A DNA stretch of 64,000 nucleotides from assembly GCA_965248435.1 (NCBI GenBank), contig OZ252100.1, positions 3,808,001 through 3,872,000 of the forward strand, in the 5' to 3' direction. Both the position numbers and the translations under genes were made by a program. This document shows positions 41,788-64,000 of this stretch, piece by piece; position 1 is the first letter of the stretch, and every line of letters starts with the position of its first letter. This DNA comes from Candidatus Latescibacterota bacterium. GTDB lineage: Bacteria; Latescibacterota; UBA2968; GCA-2709665. A model generated the notes under the pieces. The model had not been told where the DNA came from. It saw only the letters and a program-made list of their open reading frames with translations, and did no database searches.

Positions 41788-41975
41788 ATTGGCAGGATTT
41801 ACGCAGTGCATTTTATCTGCCCTACAGGTGGAATCTGCGCACATGGTGCGCGAATGCAGAAGTTGAACTAAACCGCTTCGCGGTGGCCTGCTGCAAGGCC
41901 TTTGCTCTTTGACAACCAGGATATGATACCGTGCAAGTCCGGAGCCACTTTGCAAATGGCTCTGTGCTTCGCATC

Positions 41976-42013
41976 CTCCTTCTGCTAACAACGTCCACCA
42001 TCAGCAGAAGGAG
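41976..42013 (+). promoter_or_regulatory. RBS-sequestering hairpin upstream of the recombinase
   Basis: ctccttctgct (41976-86) is a perfect 11-bp complement of agcagaaggag (42003-13), which holds the SD. Confidence 0.55.
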
Positions 42014-42019
42014 AGAGCC

Positions 42020-42871
42020 ATGACCAAGCATCGGAAGCGAATGATCCGGGACATGCAGTTGAAAGGTTTAGATCCGGATACGCAGAAGGCGTACGTGAGC
42101 GGAGTGGCCGGGCTGTGTCGTTACTGCAAGACACCGCCCGACCGGCTCAGCGAAGAAGAGATCCGCGCCTATCTGCACTATCTGATCACTGAGCGGAAGC
42201 TGTCCCAAAGCTATGTCAACCAGGTATACAGCGGGCTGAAGTTTCTGTTCCAAACGACGTTGAAGCGTGACTGGGTCGAGTGGGGCATCCCTCGTGCGAA
42301 GAAGGCAAAGAAGCTCCCGGTGGTACTCTCCACAGAGGAAGTGCAGCGGCTGATCGACAGGACCAACAACCTGAAACACCGTACGCTGCTGATGGTCATT
42401 TACTCTGGCGGGCTCAGACTGAGTGAGGCCATCGGGCTAAAGCTTTCCGATATCGACAGTGACCGGATGCTGATCCGTGTGCGGGGCAAAGGCCAAAAAG
42501 AGCGAGAGACGCTTCTGGCCCAGGAGGCCTTAAAGGCACTCCGCGTCTATTGGCGCACCAACCCGTCTCGCGATTGGCTGTTCCCCGGCGAAAGACCGGA
42601 CGCGCCGCTCCATGCTCGCACTGTCCAGAAAGTCTTCGAGCAGGCCTGCCGACGCGCGGAGATACAAAAGCGTGCGAGTGTCCACTCGCTGCGTCACAGC
42701 TTCGCCACGCATCTTCTGGACAACGGAGTCGACATCCGCTTCGTCCAACAACTGTTGGGTCACACGAGCATTCGAACCACCACCGTCTACCTCCACGTCA
42801 CCACCCGGGACCTCACGCGTATCAGAAGCCCCCTGGACCTTTTGGGAGATGAAGACAAGCCGACTTCGTAG
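42020..42871 (+). CDS. Tyrosine recombinase (SAM-like N-terminal + catalytic domain), no IntI-specific insertion
   Basis: GLRLSE (R), GKGQKER (K), HSLRHSFATH, LLGH, TTVY. Confidence 0.92.
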   Translation: MTKHRKRMIRDMQLKGLDPDTQKAYVSGVAGLCRYCKTPPDRLSEEEIRAYLHYLITERKLSQSYVNQVYSGLKFLFQTTLKRDWVEWGIPRAKKAKKLPVVLSTEEVQRLIDRTNNLKHRTLLMVIYSGGLRLSEAIGLKLSDIDSDRMLIRVRGKGQKERETLLAQEALKALRVYWRTNPSRDWLFPGERPDAPLHARTVQKVFEQACRRAEIQKRASVHSLRHSFATHLLDNGVDIRFVQQLLGHTSIRTTTVYLHVTTRDLTRIRSPLDLLGDEDKPTS

Positions 42872-42883
42872 CGGAGGTCGGCC

Positions 42884-44068
42884 ATGTCACAGGCTCTCGA
42901 AGTCGCCGACATCTTCCGGGCCCACGGAGACAGCTATCAAGTAGAATACGGTGATCACATGCCGCTTCGGCAGAAGCGGGCCATGCGGGCTATCCAGATC
43001 TGCCGAACAGCTGCGCTGGGCGGACACGTGGAAGTGTGCGGACACTGCGGAGCGAAGCGGATCGCCTACAACTCCTGCCGCAACCGGCACTGTACGAAGT
43101 GCCAGTTCCTGACGACCGAACGATGGATCGACGCTCGTAAAGAGGATCTCCTTCCGATCCCATACTTCCACGTCGTCTTCACGTTGCCCGAGCCCCTGCG
43201 GCCGCTTGCTCTGCGGAACCAGAAGCTGATCTACAACCTGGTGTTTAAAGCCGCATCGCAGAGTCTTCTGGAGCTGGCGCGGGAACGGAAGTATCTTGGA
43301 GCGCAGATCGGCTTTACCGCCGTGCTTCATACATGGTCTCAGACACTCATCGACCACCCGCATCTGCACTGTATCGTAACTGGAGGTGGGCTGACCCACG
43401 ACGGTCAGGAATGGAAGGCGGCGCGACGGGGCTTCTTTCTACCCGTAAAAGTTCTGTCCCGACTGTTCCGGGGGAAGTTCCTTGCGTTCCTGAAGGACGC
43501 GCACCAGGAAGGCCTTCTGGCGTTCCCGGGATTGAGTGCTCCACTGGAAGATGCGTTCTTCGATCTGCTTCGGGGTCTTTACCAGAGAGAATGGACCGTT
43601 TACGTCAAGCCGACTTTTGCGGATCCAGAACGCATCGTGGCCTATCTGGGACGATACACACACCGGATCGCCATCTCCAACCACCGGCTGGTCGCCTGTG
43701 AGGGCGACCGGGTCTCATTCCACTACCGGGACCGCCAGGCCGGCAACCGACGGAAGCTGATGACCGTCGATGCCTACGAGTTCATCCGGCGGTTCCTGCT
43801 TCACATCCTGCCGGATGGCTTCGTGAAGATCCGGCACTACGGACTGCTCAGCAATCGGGGTCGCCGGAAAAAGCTCGCACGATGCCGTAGGCTCCTGGGC
43901 ACTGTATGCACGACGGCTTCCGCAGCCACAAAGGCGACCTGGCAGGACCTTCTGCTCCGGGTAACAGGCATCGATCTTCAGGTCTGTGCGCAGTGCGGAG
44001 GCCCTATGCTCACAGTCGGAACCCTCGCGCCTCTGCGAGCGCCTCCGGCACATGTTGCCGTAGCTTGA
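42884..44068 (+). CDS. IS91-family (HUH, Y2) transposase with Zn-binding N-terminal domain
   Basis: CRT..CGHC..YNSCRNRHCTKC, HPHLH, YLGRY, FVKIRHYGLL. Confidence 0.92.
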   Translation: MSQALEVADIFRAHGDSYQVEYGDHMPLRQKRAMRAIQICRTAALGGHVEVCGHCGAKRIAYNSCRNRHCTKCQFLTTERWIDARKEDLLPIPYFHVVFTLPEPLRPLALRNQKLIYNLVFKAASQSLLELARERKYLGAQIGFTAVLHTWSQTLIDHPHLHCIVTGGGLTHDGQEWKAARRGFFLPVKVLSRLFRGKFLAFLKDAHQEGLLAFPGLSAPLEDAFFDLLRGLYQREWTVYVKPTFADPERIVAYLGRYTHRIAISNHRLVACEGDRVSFHYRDRQAGNRRKLMTVDAYEFIRRFLLHILPDGFVKIRHYGLLSNRGRRKKLARCRRLLGTVCTTASAATKATWQDLLLRVTGIDLQVCAQCGGPMLTVGTLAPLRAPPAHVAVA

Positions 44069-44273
44069 GCTCCTACACCATCCCTTGCCCGCAAGCCCAA
44101 CCACCCAACACGGCAGTAGTCTGTCCACTCTTTGAGCTTGGTAGAGCGACTATGGGATCCTGCGACATCGGCCCCTCCAAACAGCTTCAAATACGGTCCG
44201 ATGACTGGGCCAGCCCAGCGGTCCTTACACAAGAATCACTCATCCAATCCCCATAGGCAGGTGAAGCGGCTTC

Positions 44274-44348
44274 GTTCAACACCGTGTATCCGGAATCCCG
44301 CTCCCGTCCACGCTTCTCCGACTCCGGATACACGCTTAATCGTTAACT
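44274..44348 (+). repeat. attC-like site 0
   Basis: GTTCAAC..gtgtatccgga / tccggatacac..GTTAACT. Confidence 0.7.
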
Positions 44349-44383
44349 GCAATCGTGGCCTGGGTGTCAAAGCAAGGAGAACC

Positions 44384-45448
44384 ATGTTGTCTGTAGCTGT
44401 TGTGGCCCTGGTATCTGTCCTGCTTTTGTCAGATTCTTCTTTCGGAAGAGATGTGAACCTTGACCTGACTCAAGCAGTAGCCGAAAATGACAGCGCCGCC
44501 TTGAGAGTCGCTCTAGATTTAGTTGCAGATGTGAATGCTAAGGACCAGAAAGGCATGACAGCTCTAATGGATGCGGCGATGAACCCCAATCCACACATTA
44601 CACAAATGTTGTTGGATTCAGGAGCAGCTGCAAATGCAATAGATTCGGAAGGCAGGACAGCTTTAATGTATGCGGCAGTGAAAGGAAATATCACAACCGT
44701 TCAAACCCTGTTGGACGCGGGTGCCCATATGAACACTCAAAACCGCGGGGGTAGGACAGTTTTGATGCTAGCTTCAGCAGCGGGTTACGAATCAATCGTA
44801 CAGGTGTTACTGGATGCGGGGGCTAGGGTGAATGCAGAAGACGGGAATGGTTACACGGCATTGAGGTGGGCGGAAAAGAATGCTCACATTGGCATTGCGC
44901 GGACGTTGCGGCTTGAGCGGGTACGGTTTAGGCCAGACATTGATATTCCCCTAATACGGGCATCATTTGCCGGAGACATATCCACTGTCCAAGCCTTGGT
45001 TGAGAAGGGCGTTGATGTGAACTTGAGGGACGAAGGTGGCAATACAGCTCTGAAATGCTCAGCTCGAAAGGGACATACAGACATTGTAGAAGTACTGTTG
45101 GATAGAGGTTCAGACGTGGATGCACAAAGTAAGAATGGCCATACAGCCCTGATGGTGGCAGCTCGTAAGGGCCATACGACTATTTTAGAAGTGCTCCTAG
45201 AAAAGGGCGCAGATGTGAACGCCACGGATATATATAGGGTTACGGCTTTGATGGGCGCGGCAGTCAAGTGTCATCGGACTGTCGTGCAAGCGCTTCTGGA
45301 TAATAATGCGGATGTCAATTTGAAAGACAGTAAGGGTAGAACAGCCTTGGAGTTAGCCAAGATGGCCTTAGGATCTGCCGTCGATTCAAACAAGGAACGC
45401 TATTCTGACCTTATTCTGTTGCTCCAGAATGCAGGAGCCGAGGAATAG
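44384..45448 (+). CDS. Ankyrin-repeat protein with signal peptide (cassette 1)
   Basis: Repeated G.TALM.AA..G...V..LLD.GA.VN; hydrophobic N-terminus. Confidence 0.92.
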   Translation: MLSVAVVALVSVLLLSDSSFGRDVNLDLTQAVAENDSAALRVALDLVADVNAKDQKGMTALMDAAMNPNPHITQMLLDSGAAANAIDSEGRTALMYAAVKGNITTVQTLLDAGAHMNTQNRGGRTVLMLASAAGYESIVQVLLDAGARVNAEDGNGYTALRWAEKNAHIGIARTLRLERVRFRPDIDIPLIRASFAGDISTVQALVEKGVDVNLRDEGGNTALKCSARKGHTDIVEVLLDRGSDVDAQSKNGHTALMVAARKGHTTILEVLLEKGADVNATDIYRVTALMGAAVKCHRTVVQALLDNNADVNLKDSKGRTALELAKMALGSAVDSNKERYSDLILLLQNAGAEE

Positions 45449-45480
45449 CTGACTGTCAAAAGTTCTACGGCCACGACAGC

Positions 45481-45561
45481 AGTTAACAAGGCACTTGCGG
45501 CTCGGGCCGTGCGGCCCTCGGCAAACCCCTACGGGGTTCGCAAGTGCCTAGACCGTTACAC
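45481..45561 (+). repeat. attC-like site 1
   Basis: AGTTAAC..ggcacttgcg / cgcaagtgcc..GTTACAC. Confidence 0.85.
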
Positions 45562-45587
45562 GCCAGGCACACAAGGATGGCTCAAAG

Positions 45588-46160
45588 GTGCTGATGCCCG
45601 AAGCCCTATCCATAATCGTGCAGCGGGTCTTTCACTCCAAGCCTCGATCAACACTGTTGACGGAGAGCACTGCACTCCAAGCTAGCGAGTTGGCCGACAC
45701 TTGCCTGGGCCTGCGCGCGCAGATGCTCCACTGTCTGGAGGGGCTTCCCGCGCTGGCCTTCGAACCGGCGCCTGACCGCCTGCCTGGGGAGACTGGCTGG
45801 ACGGCGGGTGAGATCGTCAGCCACAACACCGACCGCCTGTTGTGGGCGCTGACCGAGGCAACCGCGACCGCCGGACTGAGCGAAAGCATTGTTCCGAGGC
45901 CGCCCGAAGTGGTCGCGAGCAACGCAGCGCACGAGCCTATACTTCTAGACCGCTGCCTTGCCCTGGAGGTCGTGCAGGCGGCAAACGGCCATCTCAAGAG
46001 TGTGCTTCCTCTCCTGTTGTCAACCGACCGGGGGGAGACGACAACGAGGACTCACCACGGACCCATGAGCGTCAAATCGTGGCTACTCCTGATTTGTATC
46101 CACGACAGCGACCATTTGGGGCAGTTGCGCGCACGCCAGGAGCCAGGCACGTTGGCTTGA
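45588..46160 (+). CDS. DinB-like protein (cassette 2)
   Basis: WTAGEIVSH and HDSDHLGQL His motifs. Confidence 0.7.
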   Translation: MLMPEALSIIVQRVFHSKPRSTLLTESTALQASELADTCLGLRAQMLHCLEGLPALAFEPAPDRLPGETGWTAGEIVSHNTDRLLWALTEATATAGLSESIVPRPPEVVASNAAHEPILLDRCLALEVVQAANGHLKSVLPLLLSTDRGETTTRTHHGPMSVKSWLLLICIHDSDHLGQLRARQEPGTLA

Positions 46161-46203
46161 TGAGGAGGCGATGCTTTTTACATGTGGTGTGGATGTGCCC
46201 GGC

Positions 46204-46345
46204 GTGTAACACGACGGGCTGCGGCTCGTGGCATTCGCCCCTCGCCCAACCTGCCTCATCGCGGTCACGGCACTTGCTCAAGAAAATCGTGGGTGGCAAG
46301 CGCCGCGCCCGCTTGGCAGGTTCGCAGCCCGCGAGAACGTTACAC
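46204..46345 (+). repeat. attC-like site 2
   Basis: GTGTAAC..gggctgcg / cgcagccc..gagaacGTTACAC. Confidence 0.85.
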
Positions 46346-46408
46346 GCCAGCAGGTTCTTCCTGAAACAACCGATAGGATGATGTTCCTGATGGAGTTCCC
46401 TTGGAGCA

Positions 46409-47299
46409 ATGATGAAAGACTCTTTTTCCGTATCTGACATCCCGCCCGAAGAAATCCAAGAGGTAATCGAGGTCACCAACGACTATCTAGTTGCGTTGGC
46501 GGCTGCGTCGAGGGATCAAGATGGGCATGTAAACGTGAACTGGACTGCTAGCGGCATGCTGGCTACCATAGGCGGTGAGCCCACTATCATCACTGCCCGA
46601 CATGTCGCTGAGGCTCTGGAAAGAGAAGAACCGGAGAGTGTTAAGATCTGGACTGACTTCAGAAAGGAAAGTGCAACGGCAGTAATGTCTTTAGACATTA
46701 CGCATGTACGCTTTGTGAAGTCTGCAAAACCGGCGTCAGGGAAGGCCATTGATGGCCCTGACCTGGCATTGATATTACTTCCGGACCACTTGGTTGGATC
46801 AATATCGGCCACCAAGGGCTTCTACAATCTGGACAAACGGCGCGACGCCGCGCTCCAGCAGGAGGGACCGCCCACGACAGGCTTCTGGCTTGCTCGTGGC
46901 TTTCCGTACGAACTCGTGACCGGGATGGATGGCGCCGAGGGTTTCTGCTTCTACTGCCTCAACCACGTGTGCTACCTCAGCGGATCCCACGAAGAGGCTG
47001 GCCATGATTACTACGACCTGGAGTTCGATTTCACATTGATGGACACCCTATCAGCCTCCGGCGAGCATCCAGAGTTGAAGACCAACCAGGGAATGAGCGG
47101 TGGTCCTATATGGCACGTTAAGGTTCACGGCGACTCGGAGGGCGTACCACGAATAAAGGACCCGCAGGGAGATATCCTTCTCTCCGGAGTGATCTTCTAC
47201 GAGTACGACCTAGAGAAGGAAAGCAAGAAGTTTCGCTGTCACGGAATCCGGTCGGTCTATAAAGCGCTCTACGATCTCCTCAAACAGCAGACTGACTAA
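46409..47299 (+). CDS. Trypsin-like serine protease (cassette 3)
   Basis: ITARHV, PDLAL, GMSGGP catalytic triad motifs. Confidence 0.7.
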   Translation: MMKDSFSVSDIPPEEIQEVIEVTNDYLVALAAASRDQDGHVNVNWTASGMLATIGGEPTIITARHVAEALEREEPESVKIWTDFRKESATAVMSLDITHVRFVKSAKPASGKAIDGPDLALILLPDHLVGSISATKGFYNLDKRRDAALQQEGPPTTGFWLARGFPYELVTGMDGAEGFCFYCLNHVCYLSGSHEEAGHDYYDLEFDFTLMDTLSASGEHPELKTNQGMSGGPIWHVKVHGDSEGVPRIKDPQGDILLSGVIFYEYDLEKESKKFRCHGIRSVYKALYDLLKQQTD

Positions 47300-47316
47300 C
47301 CCTTTGGTGCGCCGGC

Positions 47317-47455
47317 GTGTAACACGAGCACCCACGGCTCCGGCGCATACGCGCCTCCGCTGAAACCTGCCTCCCGCCTTACCAGTCTGCTCTGATAGAT
47401 GCCTGACGGCCTTCGTGAAGAGTCGGCAGGTTCGTGGGTGCCGAGAACGTTAAGT
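47317..47455 (+). repeat. attC-like site 3
   Basis: GTGTAAC..gcacccacg / cgtgggtgc..GTTAAGT. Confidence 0.85.
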
Positions 47456-47484
47456 GAAACCCGACGAAGGGGTTTACGCAAATC

Positions 47485-48132
47485 ATGCAATCTAAGCGGG
47501 CTGTGGTCCTCCAGCGCATCGCTGCAGAAATCTGGGGGAACCTTACTGACAATGTGATAAAAGTCGCGATCGATGGTGTAGATGGCGCCGGCAAGACGAC
47601 ATTTGCAGACGAGCTCGCTGAAATCATCGAAAACCGACCTATAATCCGTGCATCAGTAGATTTCTTTCACAATCCCCGAGCAATCAGATACCGACAGGGA
47701 AAAGATTCGCCGTTAGGTTTTTTCGAAGACTCGTACAACTACGAGGAACTTCTCGGCTTACTTCTCAATCCTCTAAGTCCTGGAGGGTCTGGGCGCTTTC
47801 GCACTAAGGCATTCGACCACAGGACCGACGCCCACGTTGAGTCACCCGAACTGTACGCGGAGCCAGAGTCGATTCTCTTGTTCGACGGGATTTTCTTGCA
47901 TAGACCTGAACTTTGGGACATATGGGATTATTCAATCTACTTGGACGTGAATTTCGAGAACTCAATTCCGAGATGTGCTCTCCGTGGAGAGGGAAATCCG
48001 GATCCCTATGCCGAGCAGAACCGCCGCTACATAGAGGGGCAGAAAATTTACATCCAAAACTGCCAACCCAGTGAACGGGCAACAATAATCGTCGACAACA
48101 ATGATTTGGATGCTCCCTTTATCGTTTCTTAA
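47485..48132 (+). CDS. Uridine kinase-like P-loop protein (cassette 4)
   Basis: IDGVDGAGKTT, DFFH, FDGIFL. Confidence 0.85.
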   Translation: MQSKRAVVLQRIAAEIWGNLTDNVIKVAIDGVDGAGKTTFADELAEIIENRPIIRASVDFFHNPRAIRYRQGKDSPLGFFEDSYNYEELLGLLLNPLSPGGSGRFRTKAFDHRTDAHVESPELYAEPESILLFDGIFLHRPELWDIWDYSIYLDVNFENSIPRCALRGEGNPDPYAEQNRRYIEGQKIYIQNCQPSERATIIVDNNDLDAPFIVS

Positions 48133-48166
48133 TGCTGGTACGGCGGGCGTATCCGCGTCGGACTTC

Positions 48167-48294
48167 ACTTAACACGTCCACTTGCGCTGCGGCGCATTCG
48201 CGCCTTGGCCTGACGGCAACCCGCCTTCCTCCTTCGCTGCTTCGCAGCTTCGGAGGGCAAGTCGGCGGGTTCGCAAGTGGCGGGAACGTTATAT
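48167..48294 (+). repeat. attC-like site 4
   Basis: ACTTAAC..ccacttgcg / cgcaagtgg..GTTATAT. Confidence 0.85.
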
Positions 48295-48321
48295 GCAATG
48301 CAGCCAGGAGAGGGTTTTCGA

Positions 48322-49044
48322 ATGGAGAGTCGATTGGATTCGGACCATCCAGATCCCATCCTTGCAGAGCAGGTAGAGTACTACCGTGCTCGGGCTCCAG
48401 AGTACGATGACTGGTACCTCCGCAGGGGGCGATACGATCACGGGCAAGAGCTGAATGACCGATTCAGGGCAGAAATCAACACCGTTGAAACCGAGGTGAG
48501 GGCTCTTGCGAATGTGGACAGGATTTTGGAACTGGCTGCTGGTACCGGCTGGTGGACGAGGCTCTTTCGGGAGACAGGTGCCAGAGTGACGGCCGTGGAT
48601 TCTTCGCCGGAGGTCCTAGCAAAGAACCGGGGTAGGAATGGAGACGAGAAGATCGAGTACGTAGAGGCCGATGTACTCAGTTGGACGCCGCGCGGAAGGT
48701 ATGATCTGGTCTTCTTCGGCTGCTGGCTCTCTCATGTCCCCCCCGACCAGTTTGAGACCTTCTGGAATAGAGTTGGAGAATCTGTGAAACCGGGAGGCAA
48801 AGTGGCTTTCGTGGACACACTGCGAGAAGGAATCAAGACCGTGGCGGCGCGAGACCATCACCGGAGAGAGAATGAAGGCGACATCACCGAACGCTACCTA
48901 AACGACGGAACGCCGTTCAAGATTTACAAAGTCTTCTACCAACCAGAGGAGTTGACAGAACGGCTACAACGACTGGGATGGGAAGTCAAGGTCAAGACCA
49001 GCGGAGAGTACTTCCTTTTCGGATCGGGTGAAAGGGAAAACTAA
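48322..49044 (+). CDS. Class I SAM-dependent methyltransferase (cassette 5)
   Basis: YYRARAPEYD, LELAAGTG, WLSHVP. Confidence 0.88.
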   Translation: MESRLDSDHPDPILAEQVEYYRARAPEYDDWYLRRGRYDHGQELNDRFRAEINTVETEVRALANVDRILELAAGTGWWTRLFRETGARVTAVDSSPEVLAKNRGRNGDEKIEYVEADVLSWTPRGRYDLVFFGCWLSHVPPDQFETFWNRVGESVKPGGKVAFVDTLREGIKTVAARDHHRRENEGDITERYLNDGTPFKIYKVFYQPEELTERLQRLGWEVKVKTSGEYFLFGSGEREN

Positions 49045-49088
49045 CCCCCACAGAAATGTGTTTTCTCTCGGCAACCTGGCTGCACTGC

Positions 49089-49175
49089 ATATAACACGAC
49101 GGGCTGCGGCTCCGGCCATTTGGCCTCCGCACCAACCTGCCTGCGGCAGGTTCGCAGCCCGCGAGAACGTTATAG
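49089..49175 (+). repeat. attC-like site 5
   Basis: ATATAAC..gggctgcg / cgcagccc..GTTATAG. Confidence 0.85.
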
Positions 49176-49252
49176 GAAATGCCAGCAGCTCAACTTACTG
49201 GGTGGTTGTTAAGAATGTTCGGAACTATTGAATCGAAAGAGGTGCGCTGAAC

Positions 49253-49906: not shown

Positions 49907-49943
49907 GGATCTAACCAATTAGAAACATGACTGCTGGCACTTC

Positions 49944-50037
49944 CTATAACACGACCACTTGCGCTGCGTCGCTTTCGCTCCTTGGCCTTTACGGCAACCC
50001 GCCTTTGGCGGGTTCGCAAATGGCGAGAACGTTATGC
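49944..50037 (+). repeat. attC-like site 6
   Basis: CTATAAC..ccacttgcg / cgcaaatgg..GTTATGC. Confidence 0.85.
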
Positions 50038-50143
50038 GCCAATGCTGTTTCTGTGGTGGAAACTGCAGACTAGGGAGCAGACCCCCAGGGCAATTGTTTG
50101 TACACCCAGATTGCCTATGATGGTGTAACGAGCAAGAAAGTTC

Positions 50144-50911: not shown

Positions 50912-50933
50912 GACATAAGAAAAATCAATCACT

Positions 50934-55651: not shown

Positions 55652-55714
55652 GGCAAGTCGGTCTTGGTACAATGGTATGAGGCCATAGGGAGAAAGCACA
55701 AACCGGAGAGACCT

Positions 55715-56605: not shown

Positions 56606-56685
56606 CAAGCCGTCTGCGGCTCGGGGCAGTCGCCCCTCGCTCAACTTGCCTTCGGCAAACTCGCAGAACGGCCAGAACGTTAACT
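56600..56685 (+). repeat. attC-like site 12
   Basis: GCATAAC..gccgtctgcg / cgcagaacggc..GTTAACT. Confidence 0.8.
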
Positions 56686-56710
56686 GCAATGGCGGTGGGG
56701 GGAAGCAGGA

Positions 56711-57586
56711 GTGATGAAATTGAAAGCGAACGTCATGAACGAAGCGAGTCGCTGGCGACTTGCCCTAGCAAAAAGGGTTTCGGAGATCTATTGCGAACAT
56801 GCCGATGTAAAGGCGGTAGCAGTGGGTGGGTCAGTTGCACGTGGGATTGCTGATGCCTATTCAGACATCGACATGCCAGCGTTCTGTAAGGAATTGCCTT
56901 CTGAGGATTCCTTAGAAGCTTTGTCGGGAAGAATCAAAGGAGCGGTCTGGAGACCTTTTCGCAAATCAGATATGGCTATAGCTTCAGAACTCTATATCGA
57001 CAGTGTTCGAGTAGATATGCCGTTCATTAAGATTGATAGAATGCTAGATGTTCTAGATCAAGTTGTGGAACAGCACAGTACTGATCCCTCCAAACAGAAG
57101 TCAGTTGGAGGAATTCTTGACGCAATTCCGATTCATGGCTTTGATCTAATCGACAAATGGAAGGCCAAGGCTGCCGAATATCCCAATGAACTCGCGAAAT
57201 CAATGGTGAAGAAACATTTACAGTTCGAGCCTCTATGGGTACCAAGGGAATACGCTGTTTTGCGAGAGAGCAAACTTTTTGAGTGTGAGCTAATATGTGC
57301 TTATGCCAAAAATATTCTCGGTGTACTCTTGGGGCTCAATCGAATCTATCACCCAGGTGACCTTAAGAGATTGGATTGGCTTGTAGGGAGAATGTCAATT
57401 GTTCCACGTGACCTGCTGTCTCGTCTGAGAGAAGCTTTCCAGGCTAATCGGAAGGATGTTATAAACGATCTCAGTAAACTAATCGAGGAAATAATCGACT
57501 TAGTAAATACGAAGGAAGTTAGGAAATCACTTAATAGTTCGCCGTATGTTTGTACCATTCCACCCACGGTTGAGATTTCCGATTAG
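56711..57586 (+). CDS. Pol-beta-like nucleotidyltransferase with helical C-terminal domain (cassette 13)
   Basis: VGGSVARG.AD.YSDID motif. Confidence 0.78.
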   Translation: MMKLKANVMNEASRWRLALAKRVSEIYCEHADVKAVAVGGSVARGIADAYSDIDMPAFCKELPSEDSLEALSGRIKGAVWRPFRKSDMAIASELYIDSVRVDMPFIKIDRMLDVLDQVVEQHSTDPSKQKSVGGILDAIPIHGFDLIDKWKAKAAEYPNELAKSMVKKHLQFEPLWVPREYAVLRESKLFECELICAYAKNILGVLLGLNRIYHPGDLKRLDWLVGRMSIVPRDLLSRLREAFQANRKDVINDLSKLIEEIIDLVNTKEVRKSLNSSPYVCTIPPTVEISD

Positions 57587-57634
57587 AAAAGCGCAGGCCA
57601 CCGTTTTGTAATGGAGAGTCAGCACCGCCACAGC

Positions 57635-57779
57635 AGTTAACACGGCACTCCCGGCTCAGCGCCTGGTTGCGCTTCGCCCAACCTTCCTTCGCGGTCACGG
57701 CGCTTGCTTTAAAGATAAAATGCGGTTTGCAACCGCCGCGCCCGCTTGGCAGGTTCGCAGCCCGCGAGAACGGTTAAAT
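57635..57779 (+). repeat. attC-like site 13 (mismatched arms)
   Basis: AGTTAAC..cggcactcccg / cgcagccc..GTTAAAT. Confidence 0.8.
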
Positions 57780-57886
57780 GACATGGGATGAAATGAGACT
57801 ACATTCTTGCGGTATATCCTCAGAATAGAAGGAGATATGCTGCAAATTTCGTGATTCACTAATGAACGGGCAACAAGACAAGGAAT

Positions 57887-58786
57887 ATGATGAAAGAACT
57901 TGCTGCAAGAGCCTTGGAAGATATCGAGCACTCAGTACCTCATGGGATATGGGGTGCTCACAACGGCTGTGCGATCCTCGCGGGCATATTTCTGATCGAA
58001 GAGAACTTGATCGAGGAAGGTGCGAAGGAAGCGGTGAAGCAATTGCTCAATTCGAGTAGAGTTAAGAGGGACCAGCAAGGAAACGAAAGGCGCCTCATCA
58101 GCTTGGGTGATTTCAGAGAAAGATTGATATCTTGCCTAGCGCTGGACCCGGAGCAAGTAAAAGAAATCGGCCACGATGTAATCTTCTCTTCGTACGTACT
58201 CAAGGCTTTGGATTTCCTTTCGATCTCACCCTGGGAGTCGTTGCTGGAGAGCATGGTAGAGTTGATCGGCGCGATTAAGGAATCCACGCCAGGTTGGATC
58301 ACCGTGAATGGAGAAAATCAACCGAGAGAACTGGACAAAGTTGACTCAAGTCTGCCGACAAACTACTGGCATGCCTTCGCGGCCTTAGATAGGCCCATCC
58401 AAATGGAAATAGGAGATATGCAGTTAGGACATGTTCTTACTCACGGGCATGCGATCGAGATGTTCAAATTGTACGGAAACAAGAAATCAGCGGTTGCATT
58501 TGATATAGCCTATCGCAAGCGATTGCACGGACTGCTATTGGCAAACAGTGAACAGAAAGAAAGAACAGCGCTTCCTCGTAGAAGGTTAGATCCACGCCTC
58601 GCGAGCTATTGGAGGCACGTGAAAACCAACGGCGACATGGAAGGCCATGTTTACAAGTACGCCTTCAGCTTCCTGGATCTGAATAGGCATGATCTGCGGA
58701 CCGAGGCATTCGAGGCATTCGGAAGGGTTGTTTGGCCCAACAAGCCGCTGGAGACAACGGCGACAAACGATGCGTCTAAGCCCTGA
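57887..58786 (+). CDS. Hypothetical His-rich helical protein (cassette 14)
   Basis: GAHNG, IGHDVIF, GHVLTHGH, GHVYKY; fills the cassette. Confidence 0.6.
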   Translation: MMKELAARALEDIEHSVPHGIWGAHNGCAILAGIFLIEENLIEEGAKEAVKQLLNSSRVKRDQQGNERRLISLGDFRERLISCLALDPEQVKEIGHDVIFSSYVLKALDFLSISPWESLLESMVELIGAIKESTPGWITVNGENQPRELDKVDSSLPTNYWHAFAALDRPIQMEIGDMQLGHVLTHGHAIEMFKLYGNKKSAVAFDIAYRKRLHGLLLANSEQKERTALPRRRLDPRLASYWRHVKTNGDMEGHVYKYAFSFLDLNRHDLRTEAFEAFGRVVWPNKPLETTATNDASKP

Positions 58787-58794
58787 TGTTAGTA
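58735..58794 (+). repeat. Vestigial classical 59-be-type attC nested inside cassette 14
   Basis: GCCCAAC-aagcc-gctggagac..gtctaagc-cctgat-GTTAGTA, 60 bp. Confidence 0.6.
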
Positions 58795-58841
58795 AGAACT
58801 TGGCTCAACTATCAGTTTGACCAGAGATAGTATCCCACGTC

Positions 58842-58933
58842 ATTTAACACGCCCACTTGCGCTGCGGCGCATTCGCGCCTTGGCTTTTGGCAACCCGCCT
58901 GCAGCGGGTTCGCAAGTGGCGAGAAGGTAGGAC
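58842..58933 (+). repeat. attC-like site 14 with degenerate R' (GTAGGAC)
   Basis: ATTTAAC..ccacttgcg / cgcaagtgg..gagaagGTAGGAC. Confidence 0.75.
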
Positions 58934-58959
58934 GCCAAGTCTGTACAGGCGGGTAGCCT

Positions 58960-60267
58960 ATGGATGAAGAGATCTTGAATGAGTCAATCGTATTCCTTGG
59001 TCTATGTGAGAAAGTCCAAACGGTTCCCGATGGCCATCCGGACTTTCTGAAACAGAACATACTAGGACTCAAGACTACTGTCTTCTCTCCCTTCTTTCCT
59101 ATGGGAATGAAAGGGTTTAGTCTTGCCTTCTGTATGAAGTGGCGGGATGTGCCATTTTCTGCCAAGATTAGAGGCTTGCATCCCGACGGGAAGGAAGCGT
59201 TTCGTATCGAATTCAACGCTGAATTTGAGCCACATGAGTCCGGACAGCGAAAGAAACCAGGTGAGGCCAGCCAATCAAGGTTTAGTGTAATTGCATCAGA
59301 CGATCCGCCATCTTGGGCATTTGTGACTTTCCCTGTGCCTGAAAAATCAGTGGTGGCAACGCCGGGTTTTATGAAAATCTGTGCCGCAGTTGCCGAGGAG
59401 GAGTCAGTCATTGGCCAGGTAAGATTTGTGCATGCGAAGCCTGCCCCACTCACTCCAGATAGAATCGACGCGATCAAGAGCAACCCACAAGCAGCGAAAA
59501 CAGTCTGGTACACAATCGGGTGCACGGAGTGTTCGGACGCTATCAAAGCCTACGCTGGGATCGGTCGCAACATGGATTCGGAAGAAGATGGCTGGATTTG
59601 GCAACATGACCTACCTAAGACGTTCAAATGCAAATGTGCGAAAACGAGGTTGGATCTATCCTATATGCGCGATGGTCTTCACGGCCTCTTGGGTTCCATC
59701 TATAGCATAGGCGAGGACGTAGAGTTCACCCGTCTCTACGAAAGAAGCGCTCTTGAGTCAATTTCAGGCAAGTATTGGAAGATACTGCGAGATTCGGAAA
59801 GGGAAGAAGATCTGCAGAAGTTCATCGAGGGAGCTCCAGCACTTTTGCAGTGTTTTAGTCCTGCACGGATCTTTCACAAGAGCCCCATCCTGAGTAAATA
59901 CAGTGTTGATTTCGCCATTCTCGACACTCAGGGGCACCTAATCCTTATTGAGATAGAAAGACCAGGAATCCGCTTGCTTCGTAAGGATGGCGGAATGGCG
60001 GCCGAACTCGGACATGCTTTCACTCAAGTAAGTCAATGGTTACTGGAATTTGACTTGCATCGACAGGCTTGCCTGGAATGTATTGGGGTCGACCCAAAAG
60101 AGGTTGTCCAAGTTAGAGGTGTAGTTATCGCAGGACGAGAAGCCGAGTATCCGGCAGAACATTTGGCCAGGCTAAAATGGGAAGACCGAGGTAAGATAAG
60201 CTTCCTTACATACGACGATCTTGGCCGGAGCTATATCAGTCTTATTCGAAGGTTCCATGACCTGTAG
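58960..60267 (+). CDS. Shedu (SduA/DUF4263)-like nuclease with uncharacterised N-terminal domain (cassette 15)
   Basis: EEDLQKFI, VDFAI, LIEIERP, AFTQVSQW, VVIAGR, LTYDDL. Confidence 0.72.
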   Translation: MDEEILNESIVFLGLCEKVQTVPDGHPDFLKQNILGLKTTVFSPFFPMGMKGFSLAFCMKWRDVPFSAKIRGLHPDGKEAFRIEFNAEFEPHESGQRKKPGEASQSRFSVIASDDPPSWAFVTFPVPEKSVVATPGFMKICAAVAEEESVIGQVRFVHAKPAPLTPDRIDAIKSNPQAAKTVWYTIGCTECSDAIKAYAGIGRNMDSEEDGWIWQHDLPKTFKCKCAKTRLDLSYMRDGLHGLLGSIYSIGEDVEFTRLYERSALESISGKYWKILRDSEREEDLQKFIEGAPALLQCFSPARIFHKSPILSKYSVDFAILDTQGHLILIEIERPGIRLLRKDGGMAAELGHAFTQVSQWLLEFDLHRQACLECIGVDPKEVVQVRGVVIAGREAEYPAEHLARLKWEDRGKISFLTYDDLGRSYISLIRRFHDL

Positions 60268-60283
60268 ATCGTGCAGACTCGGC

Positions 60284-60427
60284 ATCTAACACGCCGGGCT
60301 GCGGCTCCGGCGCATTCGCGCCTCCGGCCCAACCTGCCTTTCGCGTTCACGGCGCTTGCTTGGCGACGAACAAAAGGGGCAAGCGCCGCGCCCACGGGCA
60401 GGTTCGTGGGTGCCGAGAACGTTAAAT
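60284..60427 (+). repeat. attC-like site 15 (mismatched arms)
   Basis: ATCTAAC..gggctgcg / cgtgggtgccg..GTTAAAT. Confidence 0.8.
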
Positions 60428-60507
60428 GCAATTGCGGCTCACAGACAAGCCGGCGACGCGTCCTGCGCCGCAAACAAAACTAGAGCTACGGAAGTAGGAG
60501 TACACTC

Positions 60508-61422
60508 ATGGCTGAACAAACCGAAACTGAATCACCCGAATGCAGTAATGTCGCCCCTCTCGTGGGATTCTGGGGCTGTGATGCGGAAACGGACGAGATA
60601 CCTGTTGGGTTTGATGTCGCACTCGTCAGGAATCCGAGGGTGGATGTTGATGAGGAATGGTCAAAGAAGATTGGGACGTCGGCTACCGATGAGCTGCGAA
60701 GAGCTCAGTGGGCACTTGAACACAGGTATCGTGGTGAGCCGGGAATCCATTTGGGATCAAAGGAGGATCTTTCGGATCAGTTGTTGCAGACTGCGTTGCT
60801 TGCTCTTTGGATCACTAAGCCCACCGGAGCCAGGATCACGCACCTGCTGAGATACCGTACCCCCTGGCACTCTGCGAATGCAGCATCTGTCGCGTTCTAC
60901 CGAGGGGATTCCTTTAGACCTAATCGTCGATATGAAAGGACTACTTTCGCCCCCGACGATCTGGATGACCTCGGGACAGTGTTCAAGGGCGTGAAATCAA
61001 TATTCGACATGAAGAAGGGACTCAGGCGAGCACTCTACCATCTGAGCGGGGCCTTACACTTGTGGTTCTGGGATGCTCGATTCGCGATGTTCACAGTCGT
61101 TCTCGAAAGCCTGTTCACCACAGACGCACAAGAGATCACGCACAAGATCAGCGAACGCATCGCCTTCTTCCTTAAGGACACTCCAGCAGAGAGGCGATGT
61201 GTGTTTGATGACGTAAAGGAAATCTACCGTACAAGATCGAGAATTGTCCACGGACTCGATCTCAAGGCTACTGAAGAACAAACCGTCAGCCTCTTGGCGG
61301 AACTAGAGGCGCTTGTTCACCACGTTTTGAAGAGGATTTTGAAAGATTCAAAGCTGGTAGAGGAGTTCTCTGGCAATGCCAAGCGACGTGAACAGTTCCT
61401 AACTGACCTTGTGTTCTCCTAA
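60508..61422 (+). CDS. HEPN-domain protein (ApeA-like; cassette 16)
   Basis: LESLF..EITHKISERIA..YRTRSRIVHG (RxxxxH). Confidence 0.75.
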   Translation: MAEQTETESPECSNVAPLVGFWGCDAETDEIPVGFDVALVRNPRVDVDEEWSKKIGTSATDELRRAQWALEHRYRGEPGIHLGSKEDLSDQLLQTALLALWITKPTGARITHLLRYRTPWHSANAASVAFYRGDSFRPNRRYERTTFAPDDLDDLGTVFKGVKSIFDMKKGLRRALYHLSGALHLWFWDARFAMFTVVLESLFTTDAQEITHKISERIAFFLKDTPAERRCVFDDVKEIYRTRSRIVHGLDLKATEEQTVSLLAELEALVHHVLKRILKDSKLVEEFSGNAKRREQFLTDLVFS

Positions 61423-61479
61423 GTCTTTATGGAGCTTGGCCAACTTGCCTTCGTAGCAAGCTGGCCGGGCCGCAACAGC

Positions 61480-61622
61480 ATTTAACACGAGCACCCCCGG
61501 CTTCGGCGCATTCGCCCCTCGCCCAACCTGCCATTTCACTGTCACGGCGCTTGCTTAAGAAAACCGTGGGTGGCAAGCGCCGCGCCAGCTTGGAAGGTTC
61601 GCAGCCCGCGAGAACGTTAGCC
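61480..61622 (+). repeat. attC-like site 16 (mismatched arms)
   Basis: ATTTAAC..gcacccccg / cgcagccc..GTTAGCC. Confidence 0.8.
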
Positions 61623-61716
61623 GAAATTCCTTACCCCACCCCGTCTGTGAAGGCACGCAGATTCGTAACCACAGTCGATCGGAGACCGTTTCGACCGGTG
61701 GGACGGAGATCTTATC

Positions 61717-62166
61717 TTGAGATACGGAATGAGTGCCGCGGCCGTGATCGTCCAACACAATCGAGTGCTGCTGGTCCATCATTCTAAGCGGGGCGAGTTT
61801 GACTTCTGGTTGCCCCCCGGCGGCGGCCTTGAAGGACAGGAGTCTATCTTTGACTGCGCCTCGCGAGAGGCACTGGAAGAAACGAGTCTTGAGGTTGAGT
61901 TAGACAGAATTATCTACATTCAAGAATTTGTCGAATCTGACTATCACTTCTGCAAGTTTTTCATCCTGTGCCGAAGTTACAATGGCACCATTTCTCTCAA
62001 GAACAAAACAGCCGAGGAGGATTTCCTGGTAGACGCTCGTTTCTTCTCTGAGAGTGACCTAAGCAGCATGGATGTCAGGCCAGATATACTGAAGGAACAA
62101 TTCTGGTCAGATCTTCGGGCGGGCTTTCCAAAAACGAGATATCTCGGGTTGCACACGATAGGTTAA
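61717..62166 (+). CDS. NUDIX hydrolase (cassette 17)
   Basis: PGGGLEGQESIFDCASREALEET. Confidence 0.9.
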   Translation: MRYGMSAAAVIVQHNRVLLVHHSKRGEFDFWLPPGGGLEGQESIFDCASREALEETSLEVELDRIIYIQEFVESDYHFCKFFILCRSYNGTISLKNKTAEEDFLVDARFFSESDLSSMDVRPDILKEQFWSDLRAGFPKTRYLGLHTIG

Positions 62167-62243
62167 AGACGCAAATGCTTTGACGCGTGCTTGAGGGCTG
62201 CCCTCAATGGAAATACCGAGGGGGGCAGTTCTTCAAGAACTTC

Positions 62244-62340
62244 GGCTAACACGTCTACTTGCGCTACGGCGCATTCGCGCCTTGGCCTCCGGCAACCCGC
62301 CTGACGGCGGGTTCGCAAGTGGCGAGAACGAACGTTATAC
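62244..62340 (+). repeat. attC-like site 17
   Basis: GGCTAAC..acttgcg / cgcaagt..gagaacgaacGTTATAC. Confidence 0.82.
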
Positions 62341-62369
62341 CACATTAGTCAGGACAGAAAGGCAACAGA

Positions 62370-62828
62370 ATGAAGGATTGCATGACCTGCGAACTGACGG
62401 AGAGACGCAGGCTGGGCCAAGCTCCACTTTGGGACTGCATCTATCGCACTCAGTTTTGGGATGTGGCGCATGCTTACAATACCGCATTGCCTGGCTGGCT
62501 TGTGTTGATTGTTCAGAGACATATAGAAGCGATCGATGAACTGACTGAGCAGGAAGCCGTTGAGTTGGGGGGCTTGATTCGCCGGGTTTCTTTGGCGCTA
62601 AAAAAGATCACTGGATGTGCGAAAACATACGTGATCCAATTTGCCGAGCATAAAAATCATCCGCATGTGCACTTCCATATTGTGCCACGTATGTCTGATC
62701 AGCCCGAGGACCGACGAAGCACAAAGATCTTTGCCTATCTGGGCGTCTCTCAAGAGGAAAGTGTGAGTGAACATCAGATGAATGACATTGCCACCAAGAT
62801 TCAGAGCATTCTGTTGTCAAATGATTGA
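62370..62828 (+). CDS. HIT family hydrolase (cassette 18)
   Basis: CMTC, HPHVHFHIVPR. Confidence 0.9.
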   Translation: MKDCMTCELTERRRLGQAPLWDCIYRTQFWDVAHAYNTALPGWLVLIVQRHIEAIDELTEQEAVELGGLIRRVSLALKKITGCAKTYVIQFAEHKNHPHVHFHIVPRMSDQPEDRRSTKIFAYLGVSQEESVSEHQMNDIATKIQSILLSND

Positions 62829-62845
62829 AAGTCTAAACTCACGTC

Positions 62846-62988
62846 GTATAACACGGCACCCCCGGCTCAGCGCCTGACGGCGCTTCGACCCAACCCGCGC
62901 TCGCGGTCACGGCGCTCGCCTTAAAGACAAAAGCCGGGGCAACCTCCGCGCCCGCTCCGCAGGTTCGGGCGTGCCGAGAACGTTACAC
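62846..62988 (+). repeat. attC-like site 18
   Basis: GTATAAC..cggcac / gtgccg..GTTACAC. Confidence 0.85.
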
Positions 62989-63102
62989 GCAACCGGCCCC
63001 TAGCAAGGCAGGGCGGCGCGTCCTGCGCCGCCAAACACAAAGGTTGCAAAAACCGACAAAATTGGCGTCTATTAGAGAGATAATAGGTAAGGATCTTGAA
63101 TA

Positions 63103-63342
63103 ATGCCGACGGTATTGAGGGAAGGTCCCTATCGATTCTTTTTCGTATCACTCGACCGAGAAGAACCCGCGCATATTCACATACGGCGGGAGAACATGGT
63201 AGCAAAGTTTTGGCTTGATCCTATGGCGCTGGAAAGGGCTGGTGGATTCAGAGCTTCCGAACTGAACCGGATCGCCCAGCTTGTTCAAGAGCATCGAGAA
63301 CACTTCTTGGAGCAATGGCATGGCTTCTTCGCAGAAGAGTAA
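63103..63342 (+). CDS. DUF4160 protein (putative toxin; cassette 19)
   Basis: MPTVLR.GPYRFFF.S....EPAHIH..AKFWL. Confidence 0.85.
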   Translation: MPTVLREGPYRFFFVSLDREEPAHIHIRRENMVAKFWLDPMALERAGGFRASELNRIAQLVQEHREHFLEQWHGFFAEE

Positions 63343-63637
63343 GTCTGAAGCAAGAGCGCAAGAGGTGACACTCACTGACGAAGTGTTGAGCATTAGCCTC
63401 GTGGACGGTCGTTCCGTCAGTGTGCCGCTTTCGTGGTATCCTCGTCTGTGGTACGGCAGTGAGGAAGAACGCAAGAACTTCGAACTATTTGGAGATGGAT
63501 CGTACATTCACTGGCCTGATCTCGACGAAGATCTCACAGTTGAAGGTATCCTCGAAGGAAAGCGATCGGCCGAAGGTCCCAGCTCGCTGAAGAAATGGCT
63601 CGAGACAAGAGAAGGAAAATCCAAACCCACAGCTTGA
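63320..63637 (+). CDS. DUF2442 protein (putative antitoxin; cassette 19)
   Basis: L.DGR...VPLSWYPRL, IHWPDLDEDL; overlaps the DUF4160 gene. Confidence 0.85.
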   Translation: MASSQKSKSEARAQEVTLTDEVLSISLVDGRSVSVPLSWYPRLWYGSEEERKNFELFGDGSYIHWPDLDEDLTVEGILEGKRSAEGPSSLKKWLETREGKSKPTA

Positions 63638-63712
63638 GGATACATCCAACTGAGTTGTGCGTACGCGGCCTTGCCATCCCCGGCAAGGCCGCAACTACAA
63701 GGTCCCGGCAGC

Positions 63713-63852
63713 GTGTAACACGACGGGCTGCGGCTCGGGGCATTCGCCCCTCGCGCAACCTGCCTTATCGCGGTCACGGTGCTTGCCGATGAAAGGCGGG
63801 TTGCAACCGCCGCGCCCGCTCGGCAGGTTCGTGGGTGCCGAGACCGTTACCT
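63713..63852 (+). repeat. attC-like site 19 (mismatched arms)
   Basis: GTGTAAC..gggctgcg / cgtgggtgccg..GTTACCT. Confidence 0.82.
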
Positions 63853-64000
63853 GCCATGCAGGTTTTTGAGTTTCCGGTTTCAATAGAAGGGGCAAACCAA
63901 ACAACAGCTCAGGGGCTTCTGACGAGGCCCCTTGTTTGTCAGGTTGATAGGTACTTGGCGCGCGCGCGGCAGCGCGCCCGACTGACACCTCGTTTCAGTC

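Follow-up and report, generated by a model that had tools for sequence, protein, structure and literature searches.

A 64,000-nucleotide stretch of the Candidatus Latescibacterota bacterium chromosome (GenBank assembly GCA_965248435.1, contig OZ252100.1, positions 3,808,001 to 3,872,000; hereafter the window, or G000:C1:3808001-3872000, G000 being the genome to which it belongs) carries an array of gene cassettes in which the start of each cassette pairs with that cassette's own end well beyond the 7-bp R box of an attC site. The pairing is interrupted at position 11, where an A at the start faces a C at the end, which is a T.G wobble when the bottom strand is considered, and it then resumes as an outer stem. 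The outer stem and the A.C / T.G fixed at its base are genuine, conserved and unlike anything in canonical cassettes, and the terminal inverted repeats are most likely the split R arm of an attC site, rejoined only in the excised circle. Judged from their sequences, the arrays are best described as an integron-like system that fails the strict integron definition on the integrase and is integron-like by the other sequence criteria with a clear outcome.

Between positions 41862 and 63852 the window holds 20 complete co-oriented cassettes (numbered 0-19) and the start of a 21st, separated by imperfect hairpins of 75-145 nt (Table 1). Read 5' to 3', a hairpin consists of NNNTAAC (R''), a short ACG or ACGA spacer, an L'' stem of 9-11 nt, a tip that varies between sites and is often branched, the complementary L', the spacer CGAGAAC and, as its end, GTTANNN (R'). 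All 20 are attC-type sites with TAAC/GTTA cores and L stems, the L boxes being self-complementary in 18 and hybrid in two, and a generic hairpin finder recovered them at -0.19 to -0.33 kcal/mol per nt; Rfam returned no family match in 41000-64000. Similar arrays occur at eight further places on the G000 chromosome.

Positions are counted here from the G of R' (GTT), and the opposing base lies upstream of the cassette's own R''. The initial annotation had described an A at base 11 opposite a C in every complete cassette of the window, flanked by bases that co-vary, and our reading agrees: the combination is present in 20/20, with co-varying pairs on both sides, and the examples it quoted were reproduced exactly (20/21 matches in cassette 5, 19/20 in cassette 6, 16/17 in cassette 14 and 15/16 in cassette 8). 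The rule also applies to two damaged starts. In cassette 10 an IS110-family insertion sequence (IS) lies between bases 7 and 8, and the A/C rule holds once the element is read through; in cassette 15 the R' has decayed to GTAGGAC, and positions 8-19 still pair with A/C at 11.

Half-sites were located chromosome-wide with two small hidden Markov models (HMMs), giving 51 start/end pairs, of which 39 passed a filter of at least six of seven R-box matches. In these 39, identity between start and own end was 0.95 at position 8, 0.90 at 9 and 0.64 at 10, fell to 0.00 (0/39) at 11, returned to 0.69-0.85 at 12-16 (0.85 at 14) and 0.51-0.62 at 17-19, and reached background from position 20 onward (0.33 at 20). 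The outer stem is not a chance match: positions 12-20 matched at a mean of 5.5/9 in the 51 own pairs versus 2.8/9 in 2550 non-own pairs, and an exact outer run of at least six, allowing a register shift of up to three, occurred in 26/51 own pairs versus 4.3% of 1394 non-own pairs. Genome-wide the A11/C combination is nearly, not strictly, invariant: A11 is found at 61/69 R' and the C opposite it at 53/63 R'', the corresponding counts for G8 and its opposing C being 64/69 and 62/63. When position 10 is unpaired too, it is mostly A opposite A. In some cassettes a small internal loop (2-4 nt), a bulge or a register shift at positions 10-12 stands in for the single mismatch and is followed by a good outer stem, indicating that an imperfection at that place is itself the conserved trait.

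The limits of a cassette are set by cassette 0, which is present in six copies in G000 at 97-99.6% identity (the others near 1447-1450, 2070-2073, 4651-4654, 4842-4844.5 and 5171-5174 kb). The sequence shared by the six runs from GTTGAAC, through the downstream 75-nt hairpin, to the next GTTA; on the left it is flanked by a diverged attI-like region and on the right by a different cassette each time, and it occupies the first position in 6/6 copies. These boundaries place the crossover within the GTT of R', as in integrons, and show that a cassette is an open reading frame (ORF) plus its downstream hairpin. With a crossover at G/TT and own-end complementarity that begins at position 1-4, the halves of the repeat lie on either side of the ORF in the array, and it takes the excised circle to bring them together around the inner hairpin. 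The cassette polarity assumed in the initial annotation was thus correct, and its proposal that the stem forms only in the circle is backed by the geometry of the six copies. We also considered the opposite polarity (an upstream hairpin plus ORF, with crossover at R''), which was prompted by extra unpaired bases on the arm opposite the canonical extrahelical bases; it was rejected, all six copies of cassette 0 having the hairpin downstream and the attI-like region upstream.

Cassette 0 encodes a tyrosine recombinase and a Y2 HUH transposase of the IS91 type, the latter scoring far above its family cut-off (Table 1). IS91-family elements have rolling-circle ends, oriIS and terIS, and insert at GTTC/CTTG; the ends of the present recombinase plus IS91 unit coincide with the cassette ends (GTTGAAC ... 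GTTCAAC-hairpin-GTTA). Homologues of the attI-like region (72-93% identity) lie upstream of other arrays, of other cassette 0 copies and of an array at G000 4954 kb that has no cassette 0, and the integrase gene next to such regions is truncated in G000 and intact in G003, G018 and G107. Short palindromes are found 6-10 nt before the crossover in attI-like regions (locus L130, approximately 9820-9970, of G003; window 41800-41861) and are possible candidates for recombinase binding sites.

How much of this is ordinary was assessed with canonical integrons. A passage in Bouvier et al. (PMC2727003) already gives 9-11 nt of self-pairing between a cassette start and its own R''. Canonical IntI loci of the same phylum were tried first, contained too few clean cassettes and were replaced by 80 IntI loci from many phyla, retrieved from a genome collection with an alignment of six canonical IntI proteins of this phylum. 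A constrained-fold attC finder calibrated on the window was run on the 39 of them that had 4 kb or more upstream. It is a crude instrument (constrained minimum free energy per nt), and of its 87 candidate cassettes the 6-of-7 R-box filter left 57, from 19 loci; 11 of the 57 come from one locus (L109), where boundaries were shifted by 12 nt after inspection, and one start (L123:3088) is counted twice, paired with two ends. Identity in this set was 0.86, 0.72, 0.68, 0.56 and 0.42 at positions 8-12, 0.14 at 13 and at background beyond, so canonical arms stop at position 12 or earlier and have no fixed mismatch. A second scan, independent of the finder, required identity at positions 1-9 and at least 6/7 matches at 12-18, with counts halved for the two strands. 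It returned no extended pair with a mismatch at 11 and two with a match in the 80 IntI loci (1.01 Mb), versus, on the G000 chromosome, 29 mismatched there (A opposite C in 28) and one matched. The question raised in the initial annotation, whether such repeats are routine in IntI cassettes, therefore has a divided answer: pairing to 9-12 nt (8-12 nt in the present sample) is routine, the first 2-5 nt past the R box being ordinary and already published (PMC2727003), and the outer stem and the fixed mismatch are not.

The enzyme associated with these arrays also departs from the canonical one. The IntI model TIGR02249 gave 23 matches in G000, none above its cut-off, the best reaching 104 bits for a single stretch and all skipping the IntI-specific middle; the best of them are the six recombinase copies of cassette 0. 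The recombinase at 42020-42871 scores 195 bits (cut-off 265) with model positions 177-236 skipped, and an IntI with the specific additional domain that defines integrons was not found in G000. Over its whole length the protein is 36% identical to canonical IntI (hhalign); in the alignment its catalytic residues (R, K, HxxR, H and Y) are all retained, and some 45 residues of the IntI insertion are missing. Its best NCBIfam match is a XerA-type model (219 bits, cut-off 220).

A short recombinase of this kind adjoins such arrays in eight genomes (G000, G001, G003, G018, G097, G098, G106 and G107). The initial annotation missed this link, as well as the pairing of the recombinase with an IS91 transposase in cassette 0. 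Stand-alone homologues at array ends are 45-51% identical, and none of those loci has an IS91 transposase match. Their orientation is co-directional in G003, G018 and G098 and divergent in G001, G106 (one stop codon) and G107, and they lie approximately 0.2-1.5 kb from the array end in G003, G001, G106, G107 and G098 and approximately 4 kb from the first detected site in G018; the gene is truncated in G097 and at G000 4954 kb. Canonical IntI genes occur in 17/168 genomes of the phylum. None was detected at E<=1e-70 in G001, G003, G018, G106 or G107, and those of G097 and G098 lie more than 80 kb from the arrays or on another contig. In G000, truncated or broken recombinase genes are located directly upstream of attI-like regions and co-directional with the arrays at G000:C1 4954200-4954610 and 4650300-4650840, the 4954-kb fragment resembling the short recombinase (58% identity) more than it does canonical IntI (50%).

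The position-11 rule extends to other genomes with such arrays. Within the same family (G001, G002, G021, G003 and G018), 11/18 start/end pairs passed the filter, position 11 pairs in 0/11 and A is at the start in 11/11; in another family from that class (G106, G107 and G097), 15/23 passed and position 11 pairs in 1/15. An alignment of the short recombinases was used to retrieve 80 metagenome loci, in which nine unique extended pairs were found, all with A opposite C at position 11 (9/9). The first extended-arm cassette begins 113 and 168 nt after the recombinase gene in loci L142 and L175, respectively, and 44/80 loci also encode an IS91 transposase.

The one close relative with a canonical IntI, G004, brings both systems into one place. 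There, a recombinase plus IS91 cassette lies directly behind the canonical IntI (a unit seen twice) and keeps both the A/C at position 11 and an outer stem (CCGCT), and the next cassette breaks the rule. The co-directional side of this IntI has ordinary short attC sites that do not follow it; a search of G004 with the attC half-site HMMs of the window gave no match, and a repeat search on the divergent side of IntI found none. The feature is thus carried along with the short recombinase rather than with IntI, and the position of the cassette suggests that canonical IntI may be able to move such sites. Within the literature collection searched, there was no description of cassette arrays tied to an insertion-less IntI-like recombinase, nor of a fixed mismatch outside the R box.

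We then folded 33 cassettes with DNA parameters in two forms, the circle (end, inner site and own start) and the array. The predicted mean energy in the circle is -45.9 kcal/mol for the bottom strand and -40.3 for the top, the bottom strand being more stable in 31/33; in the array the predicted values are -35.4 and -32.0 kcal/mol. By these energies the own arm adds about 10.5 kcal/mol and widens the strand asymmetry by about 2.3 kcal/mol. A T.G wobble that favours the bottom strand would fit such values, and the proposal in the initial annotation that the fixed mismatch may serve strand choice or protein recognition fits them.

The anatomy and its pairing statistics are shown directly, as are its lack in canonical cassettes and its synteny with a short recombinase; the enzyme that acts, the strand used and the role of the mismatch are inferred. 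The explanation we favour, and regard as reasonably probable as a whole, is a split R arm of attC with the short recombinase as its enzyme and with the wobble and outer stem setting the bottom strand. One half of the arm would be the 5' end of the cassette (TTA NNN G NN A plus 6-10 nt) and the other (the complement ... C NN C NNN TAAC) would lie right before the inner hairpin. The bottom strand of the circle is predicted to form a single long hairpin comprising, from outside to inside, the outer stem, the T.G at 11 (often with T/T at 10), an R duplex of 10 bp, a bulge of 4 nt immediately 3' of where cleavage is presumed to occur, a clamp of 2 bp, a bulged T in some sites, the L stem and the variable tip; the top strand would present an A.C mismatch at 11. 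The acting enzyme would be the short IntI-like tyrosine recombinase beside the arrays, which is without the IntI insertion and may bind an arm of about 11 bp (positions 2-12), where canonical pairing also stops and in keeping with a Xer-type likeness. G8:C and T11.G would be fixed through being read by the enzyme, or forced to pair, in both the circle and the hybrid array sites; because the arm halves that meet in the array come from different cassettes, these are the sole outer positions usable in both settings, and the other arm positions can co-vary freely because their pairing is needed in the circle only. The wobble would close the arm on the bottom strand alone and, together with the outer stem, bias folding or recognition to that strand. 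The consensus of R' differs from the complement of R'' at position 11 (A versus G) and partly at 10, and the wobble could therefore distinguish R' from an otherwise identical R'' and so set both strand and orientation. The outer stem may supply the stability that IntI gains by gripping extrahelical bases through a domain that this enzyme lacks, and the fixed imperfection would stand one helical turn from the crossover, after which the arm continues.

A wider proposal is more tentative, and we would place it somewhat below an even chance. It holds that the arrays represent a second lineage of integron-type gene capture, whose enzyme is a short IntI-like recombinase in which the domain considered necessary to recombine attC was either never gained or later lost. 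The DNA would take over the task of that domain: the long R arm would clamp the circle, the fixed T.G wobble would mark the recombining strand and tell R' from R'', and the integrase gene would also travel as an IS91-fused cassette to the first position of attI sites, those of canonical integrons included.

Several observations weigh against the split-arm explanation and its enzyme. Its functional steps are all drawn from synteny and from predicted energies. In G002 and G021 arrays occur, yet no recombinase match was obtained at E<=1e-30; the recombinase genes directly beside the G000 arrays are truncated or broken, the intact copies being the six in cassette 0; the G004 cassette lies behind a canonical IntI; and a complete cassette was found in just 6/80 metagenome loci, most of those contigs being 2-5 kb. 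The site itself raises further difficulties. In canonical attC sites, as described in PMC5027507, the extrahelical bases belong to the L'' arm and each arm has 5-6 unpaired nt as its central spacer. Here the unpaired bases between the R and L stems are mainly on the R'-L' arm (4 nt), some sites also having a single bulged T on the '' arm of their bottom strand, so the analogy that fixes the bottom strand is imperfect. The hybrid R arm in the array can pair only at positions 1-4, 8 and 11, which makes excision hard to picture. Positions 5, 6 and 7 match in 22/27, 25/27 and 25/27 of the cassettes that have good outer stems, so a few are mismatched there. Three paralogous cassette pairs of G000 (5335972/982995, 1442597/2078902 and 1441590/2077958; 92-97% identical) share ORF and arms and differ in the inner hairpin, one of them breaking at about position 11 of the R''-side arm, which the simple model does not predict; nor does it predict the two attC sites of the window with non-complementary L boxes. 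Logan contigs, available for one sample, break at the repeated attC, and the 20-32-nt sides of the listed joints fit other attC copies; they are uninformative on excision or circles.

Five G000 cassettes (starting at 969234, 2082537, 5341107, 4950611 and 977055) have positions 5-7 unlike those of their own R'' and pair well at 8-20, a pattern that a crossover strictly at G/TT does not predict. The non-complementary L boxes at 57635-57779 and 61480-61622, where L'' and L' are of different sequence types, suggest exchanges inside attC sites.

The strongest competing account, though an unlikely one, is that the arrays are ordinary integron relics. They would be attC clusters left by a lost canonical IntI, the long arm a lineage-specific attC shape and the short recombinases passengers, such as remnants of IS91-type cassettes at attI. 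In its favour, no intact platform recombinase adjoins the G000 arrays, and the same account would accommodate the G004 cassette behind a canonical IntI, the IS91 link of 44/80 metagenome homologues and the presence of canonical IntI in 17/168 genomes of the phylum. It is harder to reconcile with the five genomes G001, G003, G018, G106 and G107, in which arrays have a stand-alone recombinase at their end, no IS91 match there and no canonical IntI in the genome, or with the distance of canonical IntI from the arrays in G097 and G098. Moreover, the cassettes beside the canonical IntI of G004 have other attC sites that are off the rule, and the feature is in 0/80 canonical loci.

We find it improbable, more so than the relic account, that the A at +11 of R' and the C at -11 of R'' are two separate base contacts, each read on double-stranded or hybrid sites, with their opposition in the circle incidental and the mismatch of no structural role. 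Both bases are conserved also where the outer stem has decayed (in the 61/69 R' and 53/63 R'' counted above), invariant positions alone are usable in the array, and the consensus difference at 11 means that this base can tell the ends apart. Separate contacts would not account for the imperfection being kept where the bases differ, as in the register shifts and 2-4-nt loops at 10-12 followed by a good outer stem, and they leave the outer stem itself unexplained.

A neutral footprint of cassette genesis, a long inverted repeat left when an ORF was first joined to a hairpin and decaying since, appears very improbable. The arm sequence is particular to each cassette and pairing fades with distance (0.85 at position 14 to 0.33 at 20), as such a footprint would predict, yet the architecture and the fixed position recur in two families and in unrelated metagenome contigs, paralogous cassettes of about 92% identity keep their pairing, and neutral decay would not hold a mismatch at 0/39 among pairing neighbours. 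The idea in the initial annotation that the repeats record how cassettes are created is not supported, and we found nothing that bears on it. Least credible is that each ORF is a transposon-like unit moved by an IS91- or IS110-type transposase rather than by site-specific recombination at attC, for although the repeats flank the ORFs as terminal inverted repeats would and both transposases are present in the array, there are no target duplications, all units are co-oriented and abut at the GTT of a structured hairpin, the IS110 element, which breaks up an arm, is bounded by other ends of its own, and the repeats vary between units so that one transposase could not read them.

Table 1. Features of the cassette array and its upstream region in the window. 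For each cassette, "pairs" lists the positions at which its start matches its own end.
Feature	Positions	Strand	Details
attI-like region upstream of first cassette	41690..41861	+	AT-rich; short palindrome right before crossover (...GAATGCAGAA, then GTT)
cassette 0	41862..44342	+	tyrosine recombinase + IS91-family transposase; own 75-nt hairpin site 44274-44348; pairs 1-7, 9-10, 12-18; A/C at 11
short IntI-like tyrosine recombinase, 283 aa	42020..42871	+	Pfam PF00589, PF13495
IS91-family (Y2 HUH) transposase, 394 aa	42884..44068	+	PF04986, PF14319; NF033538 450 bits (cut-off 125)
cassette 1, ankyrin-repeat protein	44342..45555	+	attC 45481-45561; pairs 1-9, 12-19
cassette 2, weak DinB-like match below Pfam cut-off	45555..46339	+	attC 46204-46345; pairs 1-10, 12-17
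cassette 3	46339..47449	+	attC 47317-47455; pairs 1-10, 12-13
cassette 4, kinase-like P-loop protein	47449..48288	+	attC 48167-48294; pairs 1-10, 13-18
cassette 5	48288..49169	+	attC 49089-49175; pairs 1-10, 12-21 (20/21)
cassette 6	49169..50031	+	attC 49944-50037; pairs 1-10, 12-20 (19/20)
cassette 7	50031..50905	+	attC 50767-50911; pairs 1-9; 1-nt register shift at 10-11, then outer stem of about 13 nt
cassette 8	50905..52040	+	attC 51945-52046; pairs 1-10, 12-16 (15/16)
cassette 9	52040..52687	+	attC 52552-52693; pairs 1-9, 12-15
cassette 10, split by IS110-family element	52687..54890	+	attC 54808-54896; pairs 1-9, 12-20 once IS read through
IS110-family insertion sequence (transposase 52707-53798)	52694..53925	-	PF01548 + PF02371 (DEDD transposase); between bases 7 and 8 of R' arm
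cassette 11	54890..55645	+	attC 55539-55651; pairs 1-10, 12, 14-15
cassette 12	55645..56679	+	attC 56600-56685; pairs 1-9, 12-17, 20-24
cassette 13	56679..57773	+	attC 57635-57779, L''/L' non-complementary; pairs 1-9, 12-19
cassette 14	57773..58927	+	attC 58842-58933, R' decayed (GTAGGAC); pairs 1-10, 12-17 (16/17)
cassette 15	58927..60421	+	attC 60284-60427; R box 4/7; pairs 8-10, 12-17; A/C at 11
cassette 16	60421..61616	+	attC 61480-61622, L''/L' non-complementary; pairs 1-9, 12-18
cassette 17	61616..62334	+	attC 62244-62340; pairs 1-10, 12-14
cassette 18	62334..62982	+	attC 62846-62988; pairs 1-7, 9-10, 12, 14-16
cassette 19	62982..63846	+	attC 63713-63852; pairs 1-9, 12-15, 18-20
last unit, start only (GTTACCTGCCA...)	63846..64000	+	leaves window; array decays within about 1.3 kb beyond

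The array fades without a sharp end. Past the last R' (G000:C1 3872000-3873110) there is an aldo-keto-reductase-like gene and, after it, what is left of a decayed attC (…CGCAGAACGTTAGCCGAAAG…). At the other end, the gene preceding the attI-like region (40648-41682) encodes a DUF1016_N plus staphylococcal-nuclease-like protein, not an integrase, and paralogues of this gene (71-82% identical) lie upstream of two other cassette 0 copies. At 58927-58933, where R' reads GTAGGAC, the GTT has become GTA, yet G8, A11 and the outer stem of the cassette are intact.

What is understood of integron recombination comes from a single enzyme family, IntI, in which an extra domain reads the bases flipped out of a folded attC site. 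If the split-arm explanation is true, these arrays would embody a different solution to the recognition of a folded single strand and to the choice of strand and orientation, reached without the IntI domain, and the long arm with its one fixed wobble would give a direct handle on the evolution of IntI from Xer-like enzymes. Part of the "orphan" attC clusters would then not be orphans, and surveys keyed to the IntI domain would miss a class of gene capture. The fixed position 11, its co-varying neighbours and the outer stem are easy to mutate, so the question is directly testable.

Among known arrangements, the window array falls within the description of CALINs, which are said to be attC clusters lacking an integron integrase, as it has at least two attC sites and no IntI nearby. 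The likeness is in the attC-type arrays; unlike orphaned clusters, those described here are syntenic with a different recombinase family, and the label describes them without explaining them. Xer/dif core sites consist of a 6-8-bp centre flanked by arms of 11 bp. Counted from the crossover, an arm of that length ends at position 12, the limit of canonical pairing, and the XerA-type model is the best NCBIfam match of the recombinase, but the site here is a folded single strand with bulges and a wobble at the tenth base pair of the arm.

Mobile elements offer further parallels. IS1111/IS110 elements targeting attC sites are mentioned in a passage of PMC9229058, and the IS110-family element of cassette 10 looks like an IS of this kind, lying inside an attC arm; its three copies in G000 (52694-53925 of the window, and near 1445.5 and 2067.5 kb) share one target, each inserted after GTTAGAT (between GTTAGAT and GCAATCG), and it does not explain the repeats. 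ISShvi3, an IS91-like element adjoining attC in a Shewanella integron, is termed "a new gene cassette structure" in the relevant part of the same source (PMC9229058); as described in that part it is a single case in a canonical IntI integron, whereas cassette 0 has six copies, always in first position, with arms that follow the position-11 rule. The tyrosine recombinases borne by IS91 and IS3 elements are the closest IntI homologues and are without the IntI insertion, according to a section of Smyshlyaev et al. (bioRxiv 10.1101/542381). The short recombinase shares their domain make-up, the missing insertion and the link to an IS91 transposase; it differs in lying beside arrays and in an element of its own with cassette ends, and that section gives neither a recombination site nor cassette arrays for those enzymes.

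The closest comparison remains the canonical attC of IntI, an R''/L''/L'/R' hairpin recombined as the bottom strand. Both systems have co-oriented cassettes, imperfect hairpins, ...TAAC/GTTA... cores, a crossover within GTT and first bases that pair with the cassette's own R''. In contrast to the canonical arm, which stops, the arm here runs on to position 17-21 past an A.C / T.G that is fixed at 11. Positions 5-7 vary freely, with no RRRY/RYYY pattern, G8 and A11 being the fixed bases. In place of a 5-6-nt loop in each arm, the spacer consists of 4 nt bulged from the R'-L' arm, and there is no IntI with the specific insertion. An unusually long split stem with a fixed mismatch, in arrays that adjoin a short integrase-like enzyme in place of a normal integron integrase, is a hint that gene-capture systems include a separate branch.

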